This document shows positions 8,344 through 63,038 of a DNA stretch of 64,000 bases, one piece after another (the first letter of the stretch is position 1; each line of letters begins with the position of its first letter). The stretch comes from a phage: NCBI GenBank assembly GCA_012343875.1, contig GCA_012343875.1_3924.1, one strand, 5' to 3'. The notes beneath the pieces were generated by a model that was given only the letters and a program-made list of their open reading frames with translations, did no database searches and was not told the DNA's origin. A program made the translations under genes and the position numbers.

Positions 8344-9144
8344 TTAGTGCAGTTGCTCATCAGACTCTTTTTCAGCCATAGCTGAGAGTTGCTTCACAAA
8401 ATCATCACCGAAGTTAATGCGTAGTTTCTCTTCAATGATGGAAGCACCAATGTTCACCAAAACATCATTGATTGCTTGCATACTGACGCCACCAGTCATC
8501 TCTTCAATGAACTCAATACTCACACCCATCATCTGTGAAAGTTGGATTAGTGCAACGATATTCATCATCGTAGAGATAGCTGGAATCATTAGTGCAACTT
8601 TCACCTGAAGCGGTTCTATATCAGCTACAGAGTCATTCTCAACAGCTTCTTCCAAAGACTCTTTAGTTTGCTGGATAATCTCCTTGATTCGTGGGTTTAG
8701 TTCTTCTACACCCCAATCAAGTTTTTCATATCGTGACAACTTCTCTTCCATTCGCTTCTCAAGAGCAGCCATAACAGCACTGGTTGATGAAATTAACAGG
8801 TCAATTAGCTCATCATTACCTGCGAGTAGTAGCAAGTCTTTTTCTTCAGTGGTCATGGCAATATAGTCATTTTTCTGCATCTCATAAAAAATGAACTCTG
8901 CAAGAGCATCAACACCTACAACGATAGATGCTAAAGCAAGTGTTTTGTCGCAAAGCATCATGTTGACCTGTTCTGCAAAAGCACCGTTATCAGACTTGTC
9001 TTCAGGCAAGTTATAGCTTGCAGGCATAAACTGTTCTGTGTAGTTGTTCCCACGAAGAATCATAGCCATGCTTTCTACGGCATTGATTAAAAATGCTTCG
9101 TCAATACCTTTTTCTTCAAGCATCTTTTCTACATCGATATTCAT
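8344..9144 (-). CDS. hypothetical protein (266 aa)
   Basis: ORF track. Confidence 0.5.
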   Translation of the reverse strand: MNIDVEKMLEEKGIDEAFLINAVESMAMILRGNNYTEQFMPASYNLPEDKSDNGAFAEQVNMMLCDKTLALASIVVGVDALAEFIFYEMQKNDYIAMTTEEKDLLLLAGNDELIDLLISSTSAVMAALEKRMEEKLSRYEKLDWGVEELNPRIKEIIQQTKESLEEAVENDSVADIEPLQVKVALMIPAISTMMNIVALIQLSQMMGVSIEFIEEMTGGVSMQAINDVLVNIGASIIEEKLRINFGDDFVKQLSAMAEKESDEQLH

Positions 9145-9145
9145 A

Positions 9146-9568
9146 TTATTTCTCTCTCAGTTGGTTAAGTTTCTTTCTAGAACATTTTAAGTTTTCAGAT
9201 GAAGAAAAGTCAAGTGTCTTTTCAGAACGTGGATAATAGTGCCTATCCCAAGAAGTTTCAACATCGTTAATCAGTGACGCTAGATTACACAGGTCTGTAC
9301 CACTTTGCAACCTCTTTTTAAGAGAATCTAGTAAAGCAACTGTGTCTTTAGCTTTACGTCTCGCTGTAGCAACATCTTTCATATGCTCAAATACAGAGCA
9401 TTTTAAGTCATCTTCATAGTTTTCAGACAACTCTATTTCATGTTGTATATCAACCATTCTCCTGTGATGGTGAGCATATTCCCGTTGAGCAGCAATGTCA
9501 AGTTCTTCCAACTTCTGCAAAGCTCTAACAAAGTCAGCTATGTCTGGGTGAACAAACATTTTCTGCAT
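9146..9568 (-). CDS. hypothetical protein (140 aa)
   Basis: ORF track; first gene of the minus-strand operon. Confidence 0.5.
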   Translation of the reverse strand: MQKMFVHPDIADFVRALQKLEELDIAAQREYAHHHRRMVDIQHEIELSENYEDDLKCSVFEHMKDVATARRKAKDTVALLDSLKKRLQSGTDLCNLASLINDVETSWDRHYYPRSEKTLDFSSSENLKCSRKKLNQLREK

Positions 9569-9826
9569 GTAAGCCTCTTTTAAGTAACTATTAAGTTTTA
9601 ATCTTTTATCTTAACGTATTCTATACGTTATACTTTAAAGCTTTTTAAAAGCTATTAAATAATCTTTTAAGAGTTTTAAAGTATCTGTATAGTTAAACTG
9701 TTAAGTAACCTTTTAAGTAAAAAACCCACTTCGCAAAGATTAACACCTTGTCAAGTGCATTGTCAACTTGCTTTTTATAATTTTTTGCAGTAATGTATGA
9801 GGTTAATGGTTTTAGAGGGAGTAAAA
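9569..9826. promoter_or_regulatory. divergent promoter region between minus and plus replication operons
   Basis: AT-rich 258-bp gap between divergent gene starts; tandem TTGTCAA at 9748-9766, TATAAT at 9776-9781, CTTTTAAG-type repeats. Confidence 0.5.
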
Positions 9827-12526
9827 ATGGAAAACGTAGATTTTAAAAACTTACATTTAGTTGGTGATACAGAAACTGATGGTTTACTCCTTGAGTTCAC
9901 TAAAGTGCACGTAATGGCTTTCGCAGACTATAAATCTGACGATGAAGAGCCACCTGTATGGGTCTTTACAGATGAACCTATTCTCGGTCACAAGTACACC
10001 AAGTACATCAAGGGTGGCTTACGTGAAGGTATTGAGTTTGCGTTAAAGGCAAAACGTCTTTGCATCCATAACGGTCTCGGTTATGACTGGTGGGTTTTCA
10101 ATCACATTGCACCTGATTTATGGAACTTTGATAACCCAAAGTGTAAACCGTGGAGTAATTTCTTTCAGGATTCTCTTATCCAGTCTCGTGTTCAGTGGAT
10201 GGATAGACCAACTCCAAAGGGTTATAAAGGTGCTCATGGTTTGGCTGCATGGGGTGCTCGTGTTGGTGTTCGTAAACCAGAGATTGAACATTGGGGTGTG
10301 TGGAATGCAGAAATCTTCACTCGTGTTGTAGAAGATATCCGTATTAACGCCAAAACTAAACGGGCACTTGATAATGAGTATCTCAAGCTTAAGAAGTGTG
10401 GCATAGATACTTATGAAACCTACATGCGAGCTAAAGAAACATCTTTCTGGATGAGCCAGCAAGCTATCAATGGTTGGAAAGCTGATAAAGAGCTTATGGA
10501 GTTCCATGTAAAGGAACTTGACAAGTTGACTAATGAGCTTGCTTCAGAGGTTGAACCACATCTACCTCCAACTATTAAGACCAAAGGTAAAGTAACTGGT
10601 GAAGAGTTTGCAAAGGCTTGGAATGAGTATGTTGAAACATTTGGTCATGCAGATGGGTTGAAGAGAATCACCAAGTATCCTAAGACGAAGTACCGTCAAC
10701 AGGTGCGTAACGGTGAGATGCAGACATACGAAATCAAACCATTTGGTAAGCCAACTACAAAGATTTTTAACATTGAAAAGAGAAATTGCTATACACCAAC
10801 CAACTCTGTAACTGGTGAAGAGTACAAGGAAGGCTTTGTAGCAATGAAGGATGCTCGTGCAATTTGCAATGAGTTGAATGCAAAGATTGGTAAGAAATGC
10901 AAAGACTGGAAGCCAGTGAAAACAGTCAAAACTGTGAAGTACTATAACAGTCACGTTGTTAACCACTTTGAACTTGAGTCAAGTCGCTACACAGGTTTGA
11001 TTGATGCACCATATACACCAATTGATTTTGAAGTTTCTCGTATGACTCAGGTAGCAGTTGTTAAAGACTACTTGAAATCAGTTGGTTGGATTCCAGATGA
11101 CTGGAACTACAAGAAAGACTCAGACGGTCGCCCTGTCAAAGTTTGTCGTTTCAAAGACAATAAAAAGATGATTACAAAACATCCTAAGTGGCAGGAGATG
11201 GTAGAACGTTGTGGTTTAAGTTATGTTGAACATGAAGGTGTTCAGTACATTGAGCATAACTGGTCTGTGAAGAAGTACACAGATTTGCTTGAGCCTTGCT
11301 TAATCCGTACTTCACCAAAACTTACTGAATCATCTTATGATACGATTGAAGGTGAGCTTGGACAGAAGATTGCTAAGTACTATACTTTGATGCACCGACG
11401 CAGAACTATTGAGAACTCAAAGGATGATGAAAAAGGTTGGTTGAACCAGATTCGTCCTGATGGTCGCCTTAGTGCTGGTGCAATGGTGTTTGGTACTTCA
11501 ACTGGACGTATGACACAATATGGTATTGTAAACGTACCGTCTGGTGCTGCTGTCTATGGGGAACCAATGAGGGCAGTGTGGATTTGTGAGGAAGGTACTA
11601 ACGTTGTCTCTGTAGATATGAACTCAGCCCAGCTAGTTCTTCTTTGTAACTTTATGGGTGATAAAGACTTCACCAAAGCGGTAACGCAAGGTAAAGAAGA
11701 GATTGAGTTTATTCGTCAAGAAGATGGACGCTATTACTGCAAACATTTTGATGAGTACCTAAACCCAGAAATTGATAAGTACCTTCGCTATGACTCTGAG
11801 AATGACCTGTACGTTGTCTATTCAGGGACTGATGCACATACACTGAACAGTATCTACTTTAGCTTGAACGATGAGCAGGACATCTTGACTTGTCGAGCTA
11901 CTCAGGATGAGAATCTTCTTCATGAGATTAGCAAAGGTCGTAAGAAAGCTAAGAATGGTATCTATGCACTACTGTTTGGTGCAGGTGATGAGAAGTTTGC
12001 TAAGACGATTAAAGCTGCAACTACTCAGGAAGGTGCACTGACTAAACAAACTTACTTTATTCGTTTGCCTAAAATTAAGAAGCTACTAGATGACTTGGAA
12101 GCTGACTACAAAGCAACTAAAAAGGCACTTGAAGAGGTGTTTGGTAAGACTGCTGCAATCTCTAAAGGGGGTTTTGTAAAGGTTGCTGGAGCTTGGTTGT
12201 GGTGTAAATCTCCACACAAACTGTTGAACTACCTTTTGATGGGTTCAGAGGCCCAGATTCAAAATGAGGCAATTAACCTTGCTTGTCGTCGCATGATTGA
12301 CGAAGGGTTGATGAAGCTAAATGGGCGTAAACCAGCTATAGGTGCTCGTTTGCTCTGCGCATATCACGATGAAACAAGTTGGGAATGCCCAGAAAGTATG
12401 ACGGCAGAAGTGAAAGCAGTTACTGACTGGTATTATGGACAAGCTTCTAAAAACTTAGGTCTTAAGAAAGAAACACTTGTTACAGGTACTGGTAAGGTTG
12501 GTAAAAGCTGGCTTGAAGTACACTAA
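9827..12526 (+). CDS. DNA polymerase, family A (Pol I-like) with 3'-5' exonuclease domain
   Basis: VGDTETDGL (Exo I) near N-terminus, long polymerase domain; start moved to ATG 9827 (GGAGGGAG 5 nt upstream) rather than track start 9797. Confidence 0.9.
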   Translation: MENVDFKNLHLVGDTETDGLLLEFTKVHVMAFADYKSDDEEPPVWVFTDEPILGHKYTKYIKGGLREGIEFALKAKRLCIHNGLGYDWWVFNHIAPDLWNFDNPKCKPWSNFFQDSLIQSRVQWMDRPTPKGYKGAHGLAAWGARVGVRKPEIEHWGVWNAEIFTRVVEDIRINAKTKRALDNEYLKLKKCGIDTYETYMRAKETSFWMSQQAINGWKADKELMEFHVKELDKLTNELASEVEPHLPPTIKTKGKVTGEEFAKAWNEYVETFGHADGLKRITKYPKTKYRQQVRNGEMQTYEIKPFGKPTTKIFNIEKRNCYTPTNSVTGEEYKEGFVAMKDARAICNELNAKIGKKCKDWKPVKTVKTVKYYNSHVVNHFELESSRYTGLIDAPYTPIDFEVSRMTQVAVVKDYLKSVGWIPDDWNYKKDSDGRPVKVCRFKDNKKMITKHPKWQEMVERCGLSYVEHEGVQYIEHNWSVKKYTDLLEPCLIRTSPKLTESSYDTIEGELGQKIAKYYTLMHRRRTIENSKDDEKGWLNQIRPDGRLSAGAMVFGTSTGRMTQYGIVNVPSGAAVYGEPMRAVWICEEGTNVVSVDMNSAQLVLLCNFMGDKDFTKAVTQGKEEIEFIRQEDGRYYCKHFDEYLNPEIDKYLRYDSENDLYVVYSGTDAHTLNSIYFSLNDEQDILTCRATQDENLLHEISKGRKKAKNGIYALLFGAGDEKFAKTIKAATTQEGALTKQTYFIRLPKIKKLLDDLEADYKATKKALEEVFGKTAAISKGGFVKVAGAWLWCKSPHKLLNYLLMGSEAQIQNEAINLACRRMIDEGLMKLNGRKPAIGARLLCAYHDETSWECPESMTAEVKAVTDWYYGQASKNLGLKKETLVTGTGKVGKSWLEVH

Positions 12527-12587
12527 TTAGTATTGACAAGGTGCTCATGGAAGAGTACCTTATACTGTATCTTATATAGGAGGGCTT

Positions 12588-12797
12588 ATGAGCCATCGTG
12601 GAAGAACCCATGCAGCGATGATGAAAGGTGCTTCAAAGGAGACTATCAAAAATCGTAAGCAGAAGTTGTTTGAGAGAATGAACAGGTTAATTGACAATTC
12701 ATCTCTTTCAGGTTCTGAGAAGGTTTTCTTGAAAGGTAATCTGAAAAGCATTGCACAAGAACTTATTGACATTGAGTATTGGAGACACCAAAAATGA
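12588..12797 (+). CDS. hypothetical protein (69 aa)
   Basis: ORF track; AGGAGGG upstream. Confidence 0.45.
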   Translation: MSHRGRTHAAMMKGASKETIKNRKQKLFERMNRLIDNSSLSGSEKVFLKGNLKSIAQELIDIEYWRHQK

Positions 12798-13024: not shown

Positions 13025-13180
13025 ATGAAACGCAAAGTTAAGTTTTTTAATTTATATGGAAGAGTTGGTAAAGGTTTTGACTGGCAACTGTTACGCTCAA
13101 ATGTTAAAAGCAATGAATTAGCACCACTTATCATTCATTATCGACGTACATACAGAGAAGTAGAGCATCGTGAACAGTAA
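13025..13180 (+). CDS. small basic protein (51 aa), not in ORF track
   Basis: ATG 13025 preceded by TTGGAGATACC, matching the RBS context of the preceding gene; fills an otherwise empty gap. Confidence 0.3.
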   Translation: MKRKVKFFNLYGRVGKGFDWQLLRSNVKSNELAPLIIHYRRTYREVEHREQ

Positions 13181-13193
13181 ACAGGGGTGTATT

Positions 13194-13430
13194 ATGTGGA
13201 AATCAGTAATTGCGCTTGGTGTTATTTTTCTATCTGGCTGCAACCCTTCTTATGAAGATAAAAATGCTTCTTACAGCCTCCCACCAGAGATGCAAGATTG
13301 CAGAGTATACAAGTTACATGGTGATGCTATAAGCAGAGATATTGTTGTTGTCAGATGTCCAAACTCCCAAACAACAACATCTTATAGCTATGGCAAAAAT
13401 GGTCAATCACACACTACGGTTATTGAGTGA
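13194..13430 (+). CDS. putative lipoprotein (78 aa)
   Basis: N-terminus MWKSVIALGVIFLSGC has hydrophobic core and lipobox L-S-G-C; start taken at internal ATG 13194. Confidence 0.5.
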   Translation: MWKSVIALGVIFLSGCNPSYEDKNASYSLPPEMQDCRVYKLHGDAISRDIVVVRCPNSQTTTSYSYGKNGQSHTTVIE

Positions 13431-13440
13431 GGGTTTCACG

Positions 13441-13647
13441 ATGGAAGTCCTAGTAAACTATATCTATTGTTATGATGTTGTTCACTCTACTACAACGGTA
13501 GCTCAACGTAACCCAATCGTCCCACGAGAAGGTGAGTTGGTTCGCATTGATGGTTGGACTTACACTGTGGAAAGCATCATTCATAAGTTTGATGTTGCTG
13601 GTGATGTTCAAGTTATTGACGTAGAAATTGGTGGTAAGAGAAAATGA
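13441..13647 (+). CDS. hypothetical protein (68 aa)
   Basis: ATG 13441 preceded by GAGGG; in frame with track ORF 13342..13647. Confidence 0.4.
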   Translation: MEVLVNYIYCYDVVHSTTTVAQRNPIVPREGELVRIDGWTYTVESIIHKFDVAGDVQVIDVEIGGKRK

Positions 13648-13803: not shown

Positions 13804-14022
13804 ATGGATAAAGATAACAAATATAATAACGCCGTCCTTACAGAAGATGGTGAGCTTGAAACATTCATTCTTCGTGTTGATGGTAAACTATTCCGGTGTC
13901 GTTGTGGGTCAAACTGTTTTCATAAACCAGATAAAAATGACTTAGAGCTTTACGCATGTAATGCTTGCAATACTTGGTATCACTCAGAGGTTAAAAATGA
14001 CAATTCTATACAAACAAAATAA
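13804..14022 (+). CDS. small zinc-ribbon protein
   Basis: CRCGSNCF...CNACNTWYH (C4-type); ATG 13804 preceded by GGTGAGAG. Confidence 0.45.
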   Translation: MDKDNKYNNAVLTEDGELETFILRVDGKLFRCRCGSNCFHKPDKNDLELYACNACNTWYHSEVKNDNSIQTK

Positions 14023-15097
14023 AGATGGCTCTTTTAACGTCTGGTCATGCGTTGCTGTAGGTAACAAAGTTATTACAACCTACGGTAAAGAAAATGGCAA
14101 GATGATGTTTGAAGAGTATACAGCAGAACCTAAAAACATCGGTAAAAAGAATGAGCGTAACGCTGAACAGCAAGCTCTCTTTGAAGTTGCTGCTAAGTAC
14201 AAAAAGCAAGTTGACCGCAAAGGTTATGCTTACACAAAAGAGTCTGCACAGAATACTGAAAAGGCAGGTGTACAGCTTGCTCATGATGCTGCAAAGGTTA
14301 GCCACGCAAAGTATTTGAAGTTCCCTGCTGATGCTCAACCAAAACTTGATGGTGTACGTTGCAGAATTTCAAGAGATGCTGATTCAGTTAGTTTCACGGC
14401 TTATTCTCGTGAGAATACTGTTTACAACGTTCCAGCAGAACTAATCCCAGATTTGCTTTTGCTGCTTAAATTACACCCGCAAGTTGAAGACTTTGATGGC
14501 GAGATTTATGCTCATGGTTGGGACTTAGAAGATATTGTATCTATGATTAAGAATGCTGACAATCCAGACCGTCACCTTCTTAAATTCTACTGGTATGATA
14601 TCTGTGACAATTCAAAATCTTGGCCTGAGCGTCGTGAAGTTATTGATAACTCACCTATTGTTGAGCTTGGGGATGCCTGTAGAGTTGTTCCTGTACAGAC
14701 TATCCGTGTAAATTCTTGGGAAGAGTTTGATGAAGCTCATGATAAGTGGGTTGAAGCTAAGTTTGAAGGTGCAATGTACCGTTCAATCTCTGAAGACTCA
14801 TTCTATGAGTGTTGTCACCGTTCATACTTCTTGATTAAGCACAAGAAGATGCACACTGAAGAGTTTAAAGTGACTGGTGTAAAGACTGATAAACGTGGTC
14901 ATGGTAAGTTCGTTGTAGAGACTCTTCCTAACGTCTTTGTAGATGTCTCATGGAAGACTACTCATGAGAAGAAACAGTATCTTGCTGAGCATCCTGATGA
15001 GTTTATCGGGAAACCTTTAACGGTACAGTTCCAGAAGATGACTCGTAAGGGGTCTTTGCAGTTCCCTGTTGGGCTAGTTATACGAGATTATGAATAA
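13997..15097 (+). CDS. ATP-dependent DNA ligase
   Basis: Adenylation motif I PKLDGVRC (KxDGxR); start taken at ATG 13997 (GAGG upstream). Confidence 0.8.
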   Translation: MTILYKQNKDGSFNVWSCVAVGNKVITTYGKENGKMMFEEYTAEPKNIGKKNERNAEQQALFEVAAKYKKQVDRKGYAYTKESAQNTEKAGVQLAHDAAKVSHAKYLKFPADAQPKLDGVRCRISRDADSVSFTAYSRENTVYNVPAELIPDLLLLLKLHPQVEDFDGEIYAHGWDLEDIVSMIKNADNPDRHLLKFYWYDICDNSKSWPERREVIDNSPIVELGDACRVVPVQTIRVNSWEEFDEAHDKWVEAKFEGAMYRSISEDSFYECCHRSYFLIKHKKMHTEEFKVTGVKTDKRGHGKFVVETLPNVFVDVSWKTTHEKKQYLAEHPDEFIGKPLTVQFQKMTRKGSLQFPVGLVIRDYE

Positions 15098-15526: not shown

Positions 15527-15910
15527 ATGAAAAAGGTTTTATTAGCTGCTGCAATGGTTATGGCAATGAACTTACCAGTCAATGCAACAGAACTTCCAAA
15601 TGTGGACTTATCAGGTGTTCCAGAAGATACTTGCCAGATTGTAAAAGGTGTTGCGCTATCTAAAGGTGAGTTACTTAAACCAATCTCTGAAGAATCTTTG
15701 ACAGAGATGACTGATAAGGTAACTGACTATCAGTATCGTGTTCTTGCAGAGTATTTCCTGCAATCTGCAAACATTAAAGAGAAACACCATGACGATATTG
15801 ATGTACAGGCGATGCTCAACCACCGTATCCAGTTTAAAGAAGATTTGATGCAAAAAGCTATGTATGGTGTTGAGTATTTCTTAGAAAACAGAAGCTGCAC
15901 AGGTATTTGA
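15527..15910 (+). CDS. putative secreted/periplasmic protein (127 aa)
   Basis: N-terminal signal-peptide-like MKKVLLAAAMVMAMNLPVNA. Confidence 0.5.
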   Translation: MKKVLLAAAMVMAMNLPVNATELPNVDLSGVPEDTCQIVKGVALSKGELLKPISEESLTEMTDKVTDYQYRVLAEYFLQSANIKEKHHDDIDVQAMLNHRIQFKEDLMQKAMYGVEYFLENRSCTGI

Positions 15911-19010: not shown

Positions 19011-19056
19011 AAACAAAAAAGGCTCCTTTTTACGGGAGCCTTAAAATTTTATTTTT
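19011..19056. terminator. bidirectional intrinsic terminator between convergent operons
   Basis: A-run, stem GGCTCC/GGGAGCC (19021-19040), then T-rich tract; lies between thyA (+) stop and minus-strand ORF end. Confidence 0.7.
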
Positions 19057-19420
19057 CAGTATTCTTTGTGTTCTTTTCAGTAATAGCTTGCAAGGCTGAT
19101 ACTGATTGGGCCAGATTGTTCACACTGTCAGAGAATTTATCAAGAGTTTTGGTAAGTTTCGCATTCTCACCCTTAACATTCTCTAACTGGACTTTCTGGT
19201 TCTCCATACCTAGCTGAATCAGTCTCATGTCAGACTGTAAATCACGAATAGCTGAATAGTTACTTTTGGAATAATTATCTAGCTGCTGTAACTTTGTTGT
19301 GACAGACACTTCTTGCTTACCACTTGAAACTTGCATAGTGGTATACATCCCGATAACACTAAAAATACCAACTACAATTGCACCAATATTATTTTTAAAA
19401 GCTTCCTCTAGCCACTTCAT
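19049..19420 (-). CDS. membrane-anchored coiled-coil protein (possible i-spanin-like)
   Basis: N-terminal hydrophobic helix IGAIVVGIFSVIGMYTTM followed by coiled-coil-like sequence; last gene of late operon. Confidence 0.35.
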   Translation of the reverse strand: MKWLEEAFKNNIGAIVVGIFSVIGMYTTMQVSSGKQEVSVTTKLQQLDNYSKSNYSAIRDLQSDMRLIQLGMENQKVQLENVKGENAKLTKTLDKFSDSVNNLAQSVSALQAITEKNTKNTEK

Positions 19421-19615
19421 TTATTTCTCCCCCTTAAAAGCTTTTTCTAAGTTATCTACGAACTCATCATCAATAGGTGTGTCTGTTTTACTCGCAAGGT
19501 ATCTTGCAAGCTTAAAGAACACTTTCTCAATCATGTATTCACTCAGAAGGGATAAAATGAGTTTCCAGAAGAAGCTACCTAGATTTTTTAGAAGAATTGC
19601 TAGGATTGTAGGCAT
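19421..19615 (-). CDS. small membrane protein (possible holin-like)
   Basis: 64 aa with hydrophobic N-terminus MPTILAILLKNLGSFFWKLILSLL and charged C-terminus. Confidence 0.3.
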   Translation of the reverse strand: MPTILAILLKNLGSFFWKLILSLLSEYMIEKVFFKLARYLASKTDTPIDDEFVDNLEKAFKGEK

Positions 19616-19694: not shown

Positions 19695-22244
19695 TTAAGC
19701 AGTTCTTACCCAAGCCATTAACTTATAGAACTGGTTAGTAACACTAAATGCTGAACCAGAACCAGTACCACCTGTGTTACCACTAACTGTGTGGCTGTGA
19801 GCACCAATACCAACAGTGTGGCTGTGGTTACCTGTTGTATTCGTTACACCAGACCAGTTTCTTGATGCGTTGAAGTTGACAGGGATACCATTAGTAAAGT
19901 TGTTACCAGTATACCCTTTAGAACCTGCCTGACTACCGAGGTAGAATGCACCACTTGCTGTGTAGAAGCTACTAGCGTCACTTCTGAAGTAACCAAATGA
20001 ACCAGTAATCTCCATAGTACCTCTGTTGTGGTTGTGGTTACCAGTTGTGCTAGAAGTCTTAGTACCATAGTCAAATGATGAAGTAGTAGCAGAGAAGCTG
20101 TGCGTGTGTGAAGGTAAGTTACCAACAGACAACGTTACAGAGTCTGAACCACCAGTTGTAGCAACATCTGAACCGTTTGCTGCTGCAATTCTAATAGTTC
20201 TACCAACACCATTATTCAGGTACGTCCAAGTTAACCCAGGAAGTGCTGTGTTTGGGTTGACATTACTGTTAAACCACGTCACAATACCTACTGGATAGAT
20301 TTTATTCAGGTCTGTAGAGTCACTAATTGCTTCTGCAATCTTCTGGTCAGTTTCTGCTTTAGTGTATGCACCAATATCTGAAGGGGTTGGTTTTTGCAAA
20401 CTTGTGTAGTATTTTGCAATTGTACCCTTCACAATACCTTGTGGAGCATCATCAAATGTCTGTGGGACTTCAAACAACTGTACACTTGCATTACTAGAAG
20501 ACTGAACCCTTGTCGTTGTGCTGTTTTGATACGTACCAGCAAGATAGTAAATATCATAGGTGTCTCCAGAAGTATTCACATAACCAATATCCCTGATAAT
20601 GGTGTTCTCTGATGTTCTCCAAGCAACAACATTTAAGCCCTTTGGATTGTTATTTGAAGTTCGCAGAACAATTTCACATTTACCTGCTTGGTTTGGTGTA
20701 TTAATATTAAAACCTGACCCACCAAATACCTCAATAACAGCAGTGGATGCTGATTGTGGCATCACAACAGTGGCAATTTTAGCCCACTTATCAGTGTTTC
20801 CCACATTGAAGCTAGTGCTTCTGATTCTTAGGTATCTACTATCACTAGCACTTTGCGTAAAGTATCTAGCATCTAAGTTAGAGAAATCTGAAGGTTGAAC
20901 TTGTCCAGCAATAGTCAATGTTTTGTTAATGTATGATGTTGTATTCCCGAGAACCAATTGGGTTCCAGAATAACTGTTATTTAGGGTTACATCATTATTA
21001 TCTGCCCCACCAACACCTACCCACCACCTTGACACATTAGCAGTGTCCACACCACGGATATACAATGGTCTGTTCTGAGTAGAGTTTTTCACAATTAGGG
21101 CTTCATTATCCGTAACAACTTTCTGTACACCATTAAAAGTATTTTGTGCATTAGTTCTTGCAATCGTACTTAATGTTGCTGCCGGAATATATCTAGAGTC
21201 AATATTAGTCCAATCCGAAGGTTGAACTTGACCAGTGATTCTGAAGTTCTGGTTGACTGAGATATAGCCATTATCAAGCCTGATATTTGAACCGTGTACA
21301 TAGTTGTGTAGCAGCACAGAGGCTGTGTTATCCCCGTTCCCTACATACCACCTGTTAGTGTTCTGAGAGTCAACACCCTGAATGAATAGTGAGCTAGCTG
21401 TTGCATTTTTCAACCTTAAAGCAGCACTGTCACTAATGATGGTTAGATTTCTACTAAACGTGTTAGTGCCCGTGAAATTATTATTAGCAGCTAACTGTGC
21501 AAATCTCTGATTAGCAACTGTCTGAGTGAAGTATCTAGCATCTAAGTTAGAGAAATCTGAAGGTTGAACTTGACCAGTGATTGCTAAAGACTTATTAACA
21601 GAGACATTACTTGCAACAGTCAAGGCTGAGTTGTATTTGTTATTGTACAGCTTTACTTCATCAGAGCCATTACTACCAATACCAACCCACCATCTAGCCG
21701 AACCATCTAGGTTTACACCTTCGATGTATTGTGCATTATTTGCATTTTGGTTTCTAAGGCGAAGTAAGTTAGCATCACCTTGAATATTTTGAGTTCCAGA
21801 GAATGTGTTTGTGATAGCAAGTCTTGCATATCTTGCGTCATTCTCTTCATTAGTTCTCATACCAAGCTCATTAGGACTTGGCTTATTCAGAGTATGATAA
21901 ACAGTTGCTGACCTTGAAGCATCTGCAATAGTTAGTTTAAGACCATTTGCATTAAGTTTAAAAGTCTTTAAAACATCCCCAATAGTAATTTCAGAAGAAC
22001 CTGTAGGGTCAAATACTGCCTTACCACCATAAAGTAACTTGACAATACCTAAATCCCCAGTCATATTACTTCCAGCAATCTGAACAAACCTTTCTAGTTT
22101 GAAGGAAGCTAAGAAGTCTTGATAGGTCATTCTGCGGTCTTCATCACCCAACATTTCAGGTCTTTTCTTAACTCTGATGTGCAATAGGTCTTCTGAACGA
22201 ATTGTGTCGATTGAGTTTAATTGACTCAATTTGTAATCTGCCAT
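19695..22244 (-). CDS. long tail fiber protein with His-rich receptor-binding tip
   Basis: 849 aa; three internal about 110-aa repeats ending GQVQPSDFSNLDARY; C-terminal HTHSF, GNHNHN, GNHSHTVGIGAHSHTV motifs and shared tail ...AFSV...VRTA. Confidence 0.75.
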   Translation of the reverse strand: MADYKLSQLNSIDTIRSEDLLHIRVKKRPEMLGDEDRRMTYQDFLASFKLERFVQIAGSNMTGDLGIVKLLYGGKAVFDPTGSSEITIGDVLKTFKLNANGLKLTIADASRSATVYHTLNKPSPNELGMRTNEENDARYARLAITNTFSGTQNIQGDANLLRLRNQNANNAQYIEGVNLDGSARWWVGIGSNGSDEVKLYNNKYNSALTVASNVSVNKSLAITGQVQPSDFSNLDARYFTQTVANQRFAQLAANNNFTGTNTFSRNLTIISDSAALRLKNATASSLFIQGVDSQNTNRWYVGNGDNTASVLLHNYVHGSNIRLDNGYISVNQNFRITGQVQPSDWTNIDSRYIPAATLSTIARTNAQNTFNGVQKVVTDNEALIVKNSTQNRPLYIRGVDTANVSRWWVGVGGADNNDVTLNNSYSGTQLVLGNTTSYINKTLTIAGQVQPSDFSNLDARYFTQSASDSRYLRIRSTSFNVGNTDKWAKIATVVMPQSASTAVIEVFGGSGFNINTPNQAGKCEIVLRTSNNNPKGLNVVAWRTSENTIIRDIGYVNTSGDTYDIYYLAGTYQNSTTTRVQSSSNASVQLFEVPQTFDDAPQGIVKGTIAKYYTSLQKPTPSDIGAYTKAETDQKIAEAISDSTDLNKIYPVGIVTWFNSNVNPNTALPGLTWTYLNNGVGRTIRIAAANGSDVATTGGSDSVTLSVGNLPSHTHSFSATTSSFDYGTKTSSTTGNHNHNRGTMEITGSFGYFRSDASSFYTASGAFYLGSQAGSKGYTGNNFTNGIPVNFNASRNWSGVTNTTGNHSHTVGIGAHSHTVSGNTGGTGSGSAFSVTNQFYKLMAWVRTA
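20850..21900 (-). repeat. intragenic tandem repeat (3 x about 335 bp) in long tail fiber gene
   Basis: Near-identical DNA at about 20862-20910, 21195-21245 and 21530-21580 (GAAATCTGAAGGTTGAACTTGACCAG...). Confidence 0.7.
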
Positions 22245-62715: not shown

Positions 62716-62807
62716 TTTTGAATCTCCAGTTTAGGACTTTGTTTAGTGGGGAAGTTCATTCCCTCCCCGTTGATTGACAATTTACAGATTTTTATCAGGC
62801 TTGTCTA
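62716..62807 (-). promoter_or_regulatory. repeated leader cassette 4: TAGACA-17-TAAATT, hairpin, SD
   Basis: TAGACA (62802-62807), 17 nt, TAAATT (62779-62784), hairpin GGGGAAGTTCATTCCCTCCCC, SD. Confidence 0.45.
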
Positions 62808-63038
62808 GTCTTTTTCAATGATAATTTCATATTGACCATCGACGCTATCAAAATAAATGCCGTCGCTATCTTCTGTCTTAAAGTAACATTGTATATCATC
62901 ACTGGCGGGATAGTCTTGTCTTGCTATCTGGCAAACTTGAATAGCATTTTCTTTACTCCCTGTAAACTCCTCAAGCCCTTTAAAATCGCATGAATGACCA
63001 TTACAAATAGAAAGGATGAGATAAACGGTTGTCAACAT
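62805..63038 (-). CDS. small putative secreted/lipoprotein-like protein (77 aa)
   Basis: N-terminus MLTTVYLILSICNGHSC has hydrophobic core ending in Cys (imperfect lipobox). Confidence 0.4.
   Translation of the reverse strand: MLTTVYLILSICNGHSCDFKGLEEFTGSKENAIQVCQIARQDYPASDDIQCYFKTEDSDGIYFDSVDGQYEIIIEKD

Follow-up and report, generated by a model that had tools for sequence, protein, structure and literature searches.

What is a short, lipobox-bearing open reading frame (ORF) doing among the replication genes of a virulent phage, and is it a functional gene? The question is raised by positions 13194-13430 (+) of a 64,000-nucleotide stretch of phage DNA (GenBank assembly GCA_012343875.1, contig GCA_012343875.1_3924.1), the whole of which is herein termed the window. 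An earlier note, prepared from the letters of the sequence, had claimed that this ORF encodes a small phage lipoprotein and had proposed it as a candidate for superinfection exclusion or for masking of the phage's own receptor after infection, in the manner of Llp from phage T5. To our knowledge, small periplasmic lipoproteins are the only superinfection-exclusion factors of Gram-negative phages to be structurally understood (i.e., Llp acting on FhuA and Rtp45 acting on LptDE), and all such exclusion lipoproteins known to us are from siphophages with protein receptors. Herein, we identify the window gene as a member of an already catalogued, uncharacterised family (PHROG 902, DUF4884) and consider the ORF almost certain to be a genuine lipoprotein gene of that family; for its role, we tentatively favour an action on the host envelope over the masking of a receptor.

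A prolipoprotein gene of Felix O1-like phages

Felixounavirus comprises the Felix O1-like myoviruses of Escherichia coli, Salmonella, Shigella, and Citrobacter. The 1.5 kb surrounding the ORF matches 256 phage records, almost all of them from this genus, with Escherichia phage dune (MN850636; 99.2% identity) as the top match. The window is thus from a Felixounavirus, as the attribution to a phage would have it, and the ORF with its lipobox LSGC was found exactly as the earlier note had described it. Its product reads MWKSVIALGVIFLSGC|NPSYEDKNASYSLPPEMQDCRVYKLHGDAISRDIVVVRCPNSQTTTSYSYGKNGQSHTTVIE, with NPSYEDK directly following the bar.

Signal peptides were assessed from motif rules and conservation, with a lipoprotein being called from a charged n-region, a hydrophobic h-region, and a lipobox of the form [LVI][ASTVI][GAS]C in the N-terminal ~35 residues. 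The N-terminus of the product comprises an n-region of M-W-K, a 10-residue h-region (SVIALGVIFL), and a lipobox with Leu at -3, Ser at -2, Gly at -1, and Cys at +1, followed by Asn at +2. It thus displays the features expected of a signal peptidase II substrate, including a lipobox Cys that is kept while the signal peptide drifts; a recognisable lipobox is present in 142 of 146 homologues. Across a six-frame scan of the whole 64 kb, this was the only ORF with both a credible signal peptide and a lipobox, the remaining matches to the lipobox expression lying in antisense or overlapping ORFs within known genes. According to the sorting rule of E. coli, Asn at +2 predicts transfer to the outer membrane, and by this rule the window lipoprotein would probably reside there.

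The start codon is preceded by a good ribosome-binding site (Table 1). No such ribosome-binding site precedes an alternative GTG start at 13170, which is unlikely to be used, since it falls within the 3' end of the upstream gene, the stop codon of which is at 13178-13180.

Conservation of the protein is uneven along its length. Exactly three positions were invariant in alignments of 65 and of 147 homologues, i.e., Cys16, Cys36, and Cys55, within a family consensus of L-x-G-C ... Y-x-L-P-x-E-L-x-D-C-K-x-Y ... V-V-R-C-P-N-S-x-T-T-T ... G-K, such that the second and third invariant Cys are surrounded by the conserved motifs LPxELxDC and VVRCPNSxTTT. Between six Ounavirinae orthologues, the pairwise ratio of nonsynonymous to synonymous substitution rates (dN/dS) was 0.03-0.37, at dS values of up to 0.5. 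Identity among the examined Felixounavirus records infecting E. coli and Salmonella was 88-99%, with the lipoprotein of phage NRG857CP1 being 100% identical to that of the window; toward family proteins from Acinetobacter, Vibrio, and Aeromonas phages, identity was still ~40%.

Table 1. Coordinates of the lipoprotein gene, its parts, and two other ORFs of the window for which export had been claimed.
Feature	Position	Strand	Remarks
Prolipoprotein gene, PHROG 902 / Pfam DUF4884	13194-13430	+	78 aa plus stop
Ribosome-binding site AGGGGTG	13183-13189	+	AGGGG Shine-Dalgarno 6 nt before ATG, read from sequence
Signal peptide, residues 1-15 (MWKSVIALGVIFLSG)	13194-13238	+	From sequence rules; predicted removal by signal peptidase II
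Lipobox L13-S14-G15-C16	13230-13241	+	Cys16, predicted lipid-attachment residue and mature N-terminus
Mature domain	13239-13427	+	63 aa, 7.06 kDa, pI ~6.1; predicted five-stranded small β domain
Cys36 codon	13299-13301	+	Invariant; putative disulfide partner of Cys55
Cys55 codon	13356-13358	+	Invariant; in the most conserved motif, V-V-R-C-P-N-S-x-T-T-T
127-aa protein, PHROG 4332 (unknown function)	15527-15910	+	Canonical Sec signal, signal peptidase I
77-aa protein, PHROG 4640 (unknown function)	62805-63038	-	N-terminus MLTTVYLILSIC

A family of stand-alone genes in large virulent phages

Among PHROG profiles, the window lipoprotein matches phrog_902 (unknown function; E=1.9e-16, residues 1-76), the only other match being a weak one to phrog_15147; phrog_902 is also matched by all 147 aligned homologues, each of which is labelled PF16225 (DUF4884) in precomputed tables recorded at E<=1e-5. 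The window lipoprotein is a direct member of this family, sharing with it the lipobox, the two further Cys, and VVRCPNSxTTT, and displaying no feature that would set it apart. No NCBIfam model matched the window lipoprotein, and a sequence-profile search of the PDB with the family returned nothing. No functional study of DUF4884/PF16225 or of Felix O1-type lipoproteins was found in the literature. The DUF4884 label is also attached to some Bacteroides proteins.

Searched exhaustively with HMMER, 1.84 billion cluster representatives yielded 475 clusters (50% identity) at E<=1e-3, nearly all of proteins 72-140 residues long; two long matches (P0023 and P0085) were discarded as translations of low-complexity repeats. 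By tblastn, the lipoprotein gene is present in 585 phage records, from phages infecting Escherichia, Salmonella, Shigella, Citrobacter, Vibrio, Aeromonas, Acinetobacter, Erwinia, Yersinia, and Pectobacterium. The carriers include the Ounavirinae, the Vequintavirinae (4MG and CB7), 350-kb jumbo phages of E. coli, Erwinia, Serratia, and Yersinia, the T4-like Acinetobacter phage Acj61, further Acinetobacter phages of 44-110 kb, 114-kb Vibrio phages, and one Aeromonas phage. In the genomes of 185,579 bacterial and archaeal species (one each), a query with the single window protein found no relative; the window clade thus belongs to virulent phages and is no moron or cargo gene carried by prophages.

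In the window, the gene lies in a dense block of genes on the same strand, with DNA polymerase (9797-12526) followed by small genes, DNA ligase (13961-15097), dihydrofolate reductase, and thymidylate synthase; its immediate neighbours encode products of 51 and 68 aa, neither with a transmembrane segment. The order polymerase-lipoprotein-ligase recurs in phages dune, vB_Si_DR094, vB_Si_35FD, UAB_Phi87, DE17, and Mooglevirus ESh22. Across the family, the genes stand alone, set in virulent phages amid early genes or those for replication, and no neighbour recurred in at least 10 unrelated contexts (Aeromonas, Vibrio, and Acinetobacter phages, 4MG, CB7, Acj61, and four metagenomic phage contigs), which argues that the lipoprotein acts without a phage partner. 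A subgroup of the family on metagenomic contigs (L012 6001-6339, L019 4001-4348, and L020 4001-4327) bears a C-terminal extension, ...ALKKLTPE(E/D)RKALG(L/I), that is absent from the window lipoprotein. On the first of these contigs, a gene resembling T4 imm (PF14373) is located ~4 kb from the family gene.

A small β domain with a putative hairpin staple

AlphaFold2 modelling of the 63 mature residues, with 147 sequences (model m5ba88521361e), gave a mean predicted local distance difference test (pLDDT) score of 70.8, while the full-length protein with 69 sequences scored 67.0. Strands in the mature model are predicted at mature residues 4-7, 22-27, 35-39, 45-51, and 54-60. From these strand limits, Cys36 falls immediately before strand 22-27 and Cys55 immediately after strand 35-39, i.e., the two residues bracket the strand pair of the first hairpin, such that a stapling disulfide is the natural reading. 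We thus infer from the model that a Cys36-Cys55 disulfide may staple this β-hairpin. A search of a viral structure library with the predicted fold returned family members only, some of which carry the name "Lipoprotein."

A possible role in conditioning the host envelope

The following course of events would account for these properties. The prolipoprotein would be exported via Sec, lipidated at Cys16, and cleaved by signal peptidase II, whereupon DsbA would form the Cys36-Cys55 disulfide. Made during infection as a "lytic-conversion" factor, the lipoprotein would work on its own, with no conserved partner gene, and its target would be a conserved, periplasm-facing component of the host envelope as opposed to a phage-specific receptor; a conserved target of this kind is suggested by how highly the protein is conserved among phages whose hosts belong to different orders. 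The envelope would thereby be conditioned, e.g., through a block of secondary phage entry or through protection of its integrity until lysis. We consider the overall explanation, that of a conserved Ounavirinae prolipoprotein with an envelope-conditioning role, to fall only slightly short of an even balance, a grading that blends its parts; the exclusion or envelope-conditioning role, plausible in view of the size and Cys format shared with Llp and Cor and of the occurrence of the family in virulent phages, is by itself somewhat more doubtful than that.

The only hint from functional context for the family comes from phage Acj61 (L015 5001-5591), in which the family gene Acj61p058 lies immediately upstream of Acj61p057, a homologue of the superinfection-exclusion gene spackle (phrog_1586, E=9e-17; Pfam T4_Spackle, 2e-4), followed by 61.1 and the primase gene 61. 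This arrangement hints at a connection to exclusion.

Several points weigh against the proposed role or against parts of it. (i) We found no homology or experiment linking the DUF4884 family to a function. (ii) The spackle adjacency was seen in the single case of Acj61. (iii) The fold model is of moderate confidence (pLDDT 67-71), both runs giving a small all-β protein, and a Foldseek comparison of the predicted fold with the PDB gave nothing at E<=1e-3. (iv) A local hmmscan against Pfam yielded no match to PF16225 even at E<=10, the DUF4884 label thus coming from the precomputed tables alone. (v) The +2 residue is Asp in 31 of 142 family members, and as Asp at this position leads to inner-membrane retention in E. 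coli, the compartment may differ from one family member to another. (vi) Two Felixounavirus-type alleles (P0013 and P0014) display a frameshift after approximately residue 46, through which Cys55 is lost; these may be sequencing errors, or the gene may be dispensable. (vii) A scan for promoters and terminators around the lipoprotein gene gave nothing above the expectation from shuffled sequence, with early expression being suggested by the position of the gene alone.

A bolder version of the envelope-conditioning role, which we regard as unlikely, is that DUF4884 proteins constitute a widespread, mechanistically new class of lytic-conversion factors. Anchored in the periplasmic leaflet of the outer membrane, they would attach to the cell-wall layer or to a conserved and possibly essential machine of the envelope, candidates being the lipopolysaccharide (LPS) translocon LptDE, BAM, Lol, and Tol-Pal. 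Through such binding, the envelope would be closed to secondary infection or reprogrammed in the course of infection, also in the case of LPS-dependent, contractile-tailed phages with no protein receptor to mask.

A less likely alternative: an inhibitor of peptidoglycan hydrolases

Another way for a lipoprotein to act from the outer membrane would be as a Spackle-like periplasmic inhibitor, with a lipid-tethered domain inhibiting peptidoglycan hydrolases. The targets would be the tail lysozyme of an incoming phage or else host lytic transglycosylases or proteases, and the outcome would be a block of secondary DNA entry or of premature envelope failure. Lipoprotein inhibitors of lysozyme, i.e., MliC and PliC, are known from bacteria. 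Both this mechanism and its proposed targets appear rather unlikely to us. In their favour, most carriers are contractile-tailed phages that must breach the cell wall, the conservation of the family across hosts of several orders would suit a target that is itself conserved, e.g., an enzyme acting on peptidoglycan, and the gene order in Acj61 places a family member beside a Spackle homologue.

That same gene order also speaks against the idea, however, as Acj61 encodes Spackle separately; the two proteins coexist and are therefore neither substitutes for each other nor the same thing. T4 Spackle (Sp, gene 61.3) does resemble the window lipoprotein in being a small exported protein encoded among the early replication-region genes of a virulent myovirus, but it is periplasmic and soluble, carries a signal for signal peptidase I, and represents another family, whose profiles (phrog_1586 and T4_Spackle) the window lipoprotein did not match. 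Nor did MliC/PliC, Ivy, or any inhibitor of solved structure prove similar in sequence or fold. The gene table of a T1-like siphophage also lists a DUF4884 protein alongside Cor (PMC12210894), an entry that is unconfirmed at the sequence level.

A disfavoured alternative: a mask of the phage's own receptor

The suggestion of the earlier note was that the lipoprotein may work as does T5 Llp, which, like T1 Cor and Rtp45, masks the receptor of its own phage such that progeny and superinfecting phages of the same type no longer adsorb. Only part of this suggestion stands: the small phage lipoprotein itself is well supported by its signal, lipobox, and conservation, whereas an Llp-like mask of the phage's own receptor is disfavoured by ancestry, by genomic context, and by the use of LPS as receptor. 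We now consider such a mask improbable, more so than an inhibitor; with modest confidence, we rank both as lesser alternatives to an envelope-conditioning or exclusion factor.

The case for a mask is one of format. The window gene encodes a small mature lipoprotein (~60 aa) with three Cys, a putative disulfide, and no conserved partner gene; mature Llp, whose sequence we checked against PDB entries 8a60 and 7qjf, has 62 aa, 7.09 kDa, and three Cys, compared to 63 aa, 7.06 kDa, and three Cys for the window lipoprotein, and it too is encoded by a virulent phage. Cor (of T1, phi80, and N15) and Rtp45 are likewise periplasmic lipoproteins of ~6-7 kDa with three Cys, each acting on an outer-membrane protein unaided; mature T1 Cor has 59 aa and three Cys. 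The window gene also belongs to a virulent phage and is situated in a block that is likely expressed before the late genes, and 25 of the 147 family members weakly match PHROG 1119 ("Cor superinfection exclusion protein").

Homology is not part of this likeness. The PHROG 1119 matches proved to be confined to the signal peptide and lipobox upon profile-profile comparison (19 aligned columns by hhalign against a 20-sequence Cor alignment), and homology to Cor was thus rejected; homology to Llp was rejected on account of a purely N-terminal similarity (40 residues, E=0.016 by BLASTP) that does not extend past the signal peptide. Sequence and structural homology to Rtp45 was equally absent, and the predicted fold gave no structural match to Llp. 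Even the disulfides would differ, with Cys11-Cys58 tying together the termini of Llp as opposed to the internal hairpin that would be stapled in the window lipoprotein. The reported presence of both Cor and a DUF4884 protein in one T1-like phage, if correct, would also speak against a mask; T1 itself was found to have no DUF4884 family member. Besides Cor, phage T1 (ST72) encodes an unrelated 57-aa predicted lipoprotein, MMRILICMMAAVAMAILVVSGC..., among its early genes (L022 2099-2272).

Genomic context differs as well. In T5, llp is directly downstream of pb5, the gene for the receptor-binding protein (PMC9586334), and T1 cor lies within the tail-gene region, whereas the window lipoprotein gene is in the replication block and adjoins no receptor-binding, tail-fibre, or tail-tip gene; the closest gene for a tail fibre (19695-22244) is on the opposite strand, at a distance of 6 kb.

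Lastly, the receptor itself is of a different nature. Whereas Llp acts on the protein FhuA, phages of the Felix O1 type are reported to target LPS and not protein receptors (PMC8594841), and the stoichiometric masking of a molecule as abundant as LPS has been considered futile (PMC11990801). The near-constant sequence of the lipoprotein across Felixounaviruses of different hosts, together with its conservation in phages of other bacterial orders, means that it does not change along with the specificity for a receptor. Exclusion proteins directed at one particular receptor, by contrast, diverge quickly, with Rtp45 and its Oekolampad counterpart sharing 35% identity only, and the conservation of DUF4884 is far above what would be expected for such proteins. 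The analogy to Llp thus holds for format only, and not for ancestry or genomic logic.

A rejected alternative: an outer-membrane spanin

The o-spanins are also small outer-membrane lipoproteins, and the T4 spanin genes lie outside the lysis cassette. An Rz1-like o-spanin, which would pair with an inner-membrane i-spanin to fuse both membranes at the last step of lysis, was thus weighed as an identity for the window lipoprotein and rejected as very improbable, given a separate spanin pair in Felixounavirus genomes and no i-spanin adjoining the lipoprotein gene. Beyond the general likeness to o-spanins (lambda Rz1 and that of Felixounavirus), i.e., that of a small outer-membrane-type lipoprotein from a lytic phage, the identification could draw on weak matches of 17 of the 147 family members to PHROG 456 ("Rz-like spanin"), on the annotation of the upstream neighbour of the family gene in phage 4MG as an "Rz-like spanin" (phrog_6073), and on a 123-aa, membrane-anchored coiled-coil protein encoded in the window (19049-19420) with no lipoprotein gene adjacent. 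Set against this, an overlapped i-/o-spanin pair of canonical type already exists in Felixounaviruses, where it lies downstream of rIIB; its i-spanin in vB_Si_35FD (L008 9088-9435) has 115 residues and an N-terminal transmembrane segment, and the o-spanin (L008 9329-9598) is an 89-residue lipoprotein in another frame, MKKLSQSFIMFVLLITMSGC... This o-spanin is present in 286 phage records, including those of dune (annotated o-spanin/i-spanin) and NRG857CP1, and the region of the pair in relatives falls outside the 64-kb window. As in the window, the genes flanking the family gene in Aeromonas, Vibrio, and Acinetobacter phages encode no transmembrane segment. Moreover, unlike typical o-spanins, the mature lipoprotein is not Pro-rich (6% Pro) and is predicted to be folded.

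Several annotations in this connection merit mention. In the record of vB_Si_35FD (MZ327261), the "i-spanin" at 9401-9598 has no transmembrane segment and the "o-spanin" at 9595-9864 has no signal peptide; both look mis-assigned, the apparent true pair in the region (L008 9088-9864) being 9088-9435, with a transmembrane segment, and the overlapping 9329-9598, with a lipobox of MSGC. The 4MG neighbour, gp112 (L005 2741-2986), is an 81-aa membrane protein with only ~40 periplasmic residues. The 123-aa product of 19049-19420 (-) in the window has an N-terminal transmembrane segment and a long coiled coil, matches PHROG 4038, and is called "holin" in relatives; adjacent to it, 19421-19615 (-) encodes a 64-aa hydrophobic protein (PHROG 402). 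These two genes lie between that for thymidylate synthase and the tail-fibre gene, with an architecture resembling that of i-spanins and no lipoprotein partner nearby.

A refuted alternative: a chance reading frame

The weakest alternative, that of a chance ORF with a hydrophobic N-terminus and no function as a gene, could appeal to the truncated alleles and to the closest relative, dune, in which the lipoprotein ORF is unannotated and an overlapping ORF is called in its place, but it is refuted by the purifying selection and by the hundreds of homologues with three invariant Cys, and is further opposed by the good ribosome-binding site and by annotation of the ORF in most other relatives.

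The ORF called in dune (dune_64, L001 4813-5115) appears over-extended and overlaps the lipoprotein gene in its 3' part, with a TTG-start ORF at 13342-13647 (+) as the window counterpart. As the downstream gene at 13441-13647 (+) gives a full-length match to PHROG 4427 from the ATG at 13441, the dune annotation looks to be wrong.

Implications

At present, the gain is one of annotation, as a "hypothetical protein" can be renamed a "DUF4884 family outer-membrane lipoprotein" and some records can be corrected. In the window, the molecular format of the known exclusion lipoproteins is encountered as a conserved gene of LPS-dependent myoviruses. Large virulent phages by the hundred, with hosts from several bacterial orders, carry a member of its family, and once the target is identified, a conserved vulnerability of the Gram-negative envelope on which phages draw could come to light. 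Should DUF4884 proteins indeed form a new class, the principle of Llp, Cor, and Rtp45 would be extended from phage-specific receptors to a shared host target. There is also a bearing on the design of phage cocktails, as phages given together can interfere with one another through exclusion factors. Phages of the Felix O1 type are already in diagnostic use (PMC8594841) and have been proposed for the control of Salmonella in food production (PMC8300805).

Two further export candidates and a mobile endonuclease gene

Export had also been claimed for two further ORFs (Table 1). For 62805-63038, the claim did not hold up, as the N-terminus has no Lys or Arg in its n-region and has Ile at position -1 of the would-be lipobox, and is thus not a credible export or lipoprotein signal. 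That for 15527-15910 was borne out by a textbook Sec signal (MKK / VLLAAAMVMAM / NLPVNA|TE) with predicted cleavage after residue 20, which is conserved in relatives; the mature part contains two Cys, and the product is very probably periplasmic.

The replication block differs between close relatives in one further respect. In dune, DR094, and 35FD, a gene for an HNH homing endonuclease is found directly 3' of the DNA polymerase gene, and in 35FD the polymerase gene itself is split. The window does not have the HNH gene, and the alignment with dune begins only at window position 12533 (HNH site: window ~12527-12590; L001 3477-4004), indicative of a presence/absence polymorphism of a mobile endonuclease within the replication block.

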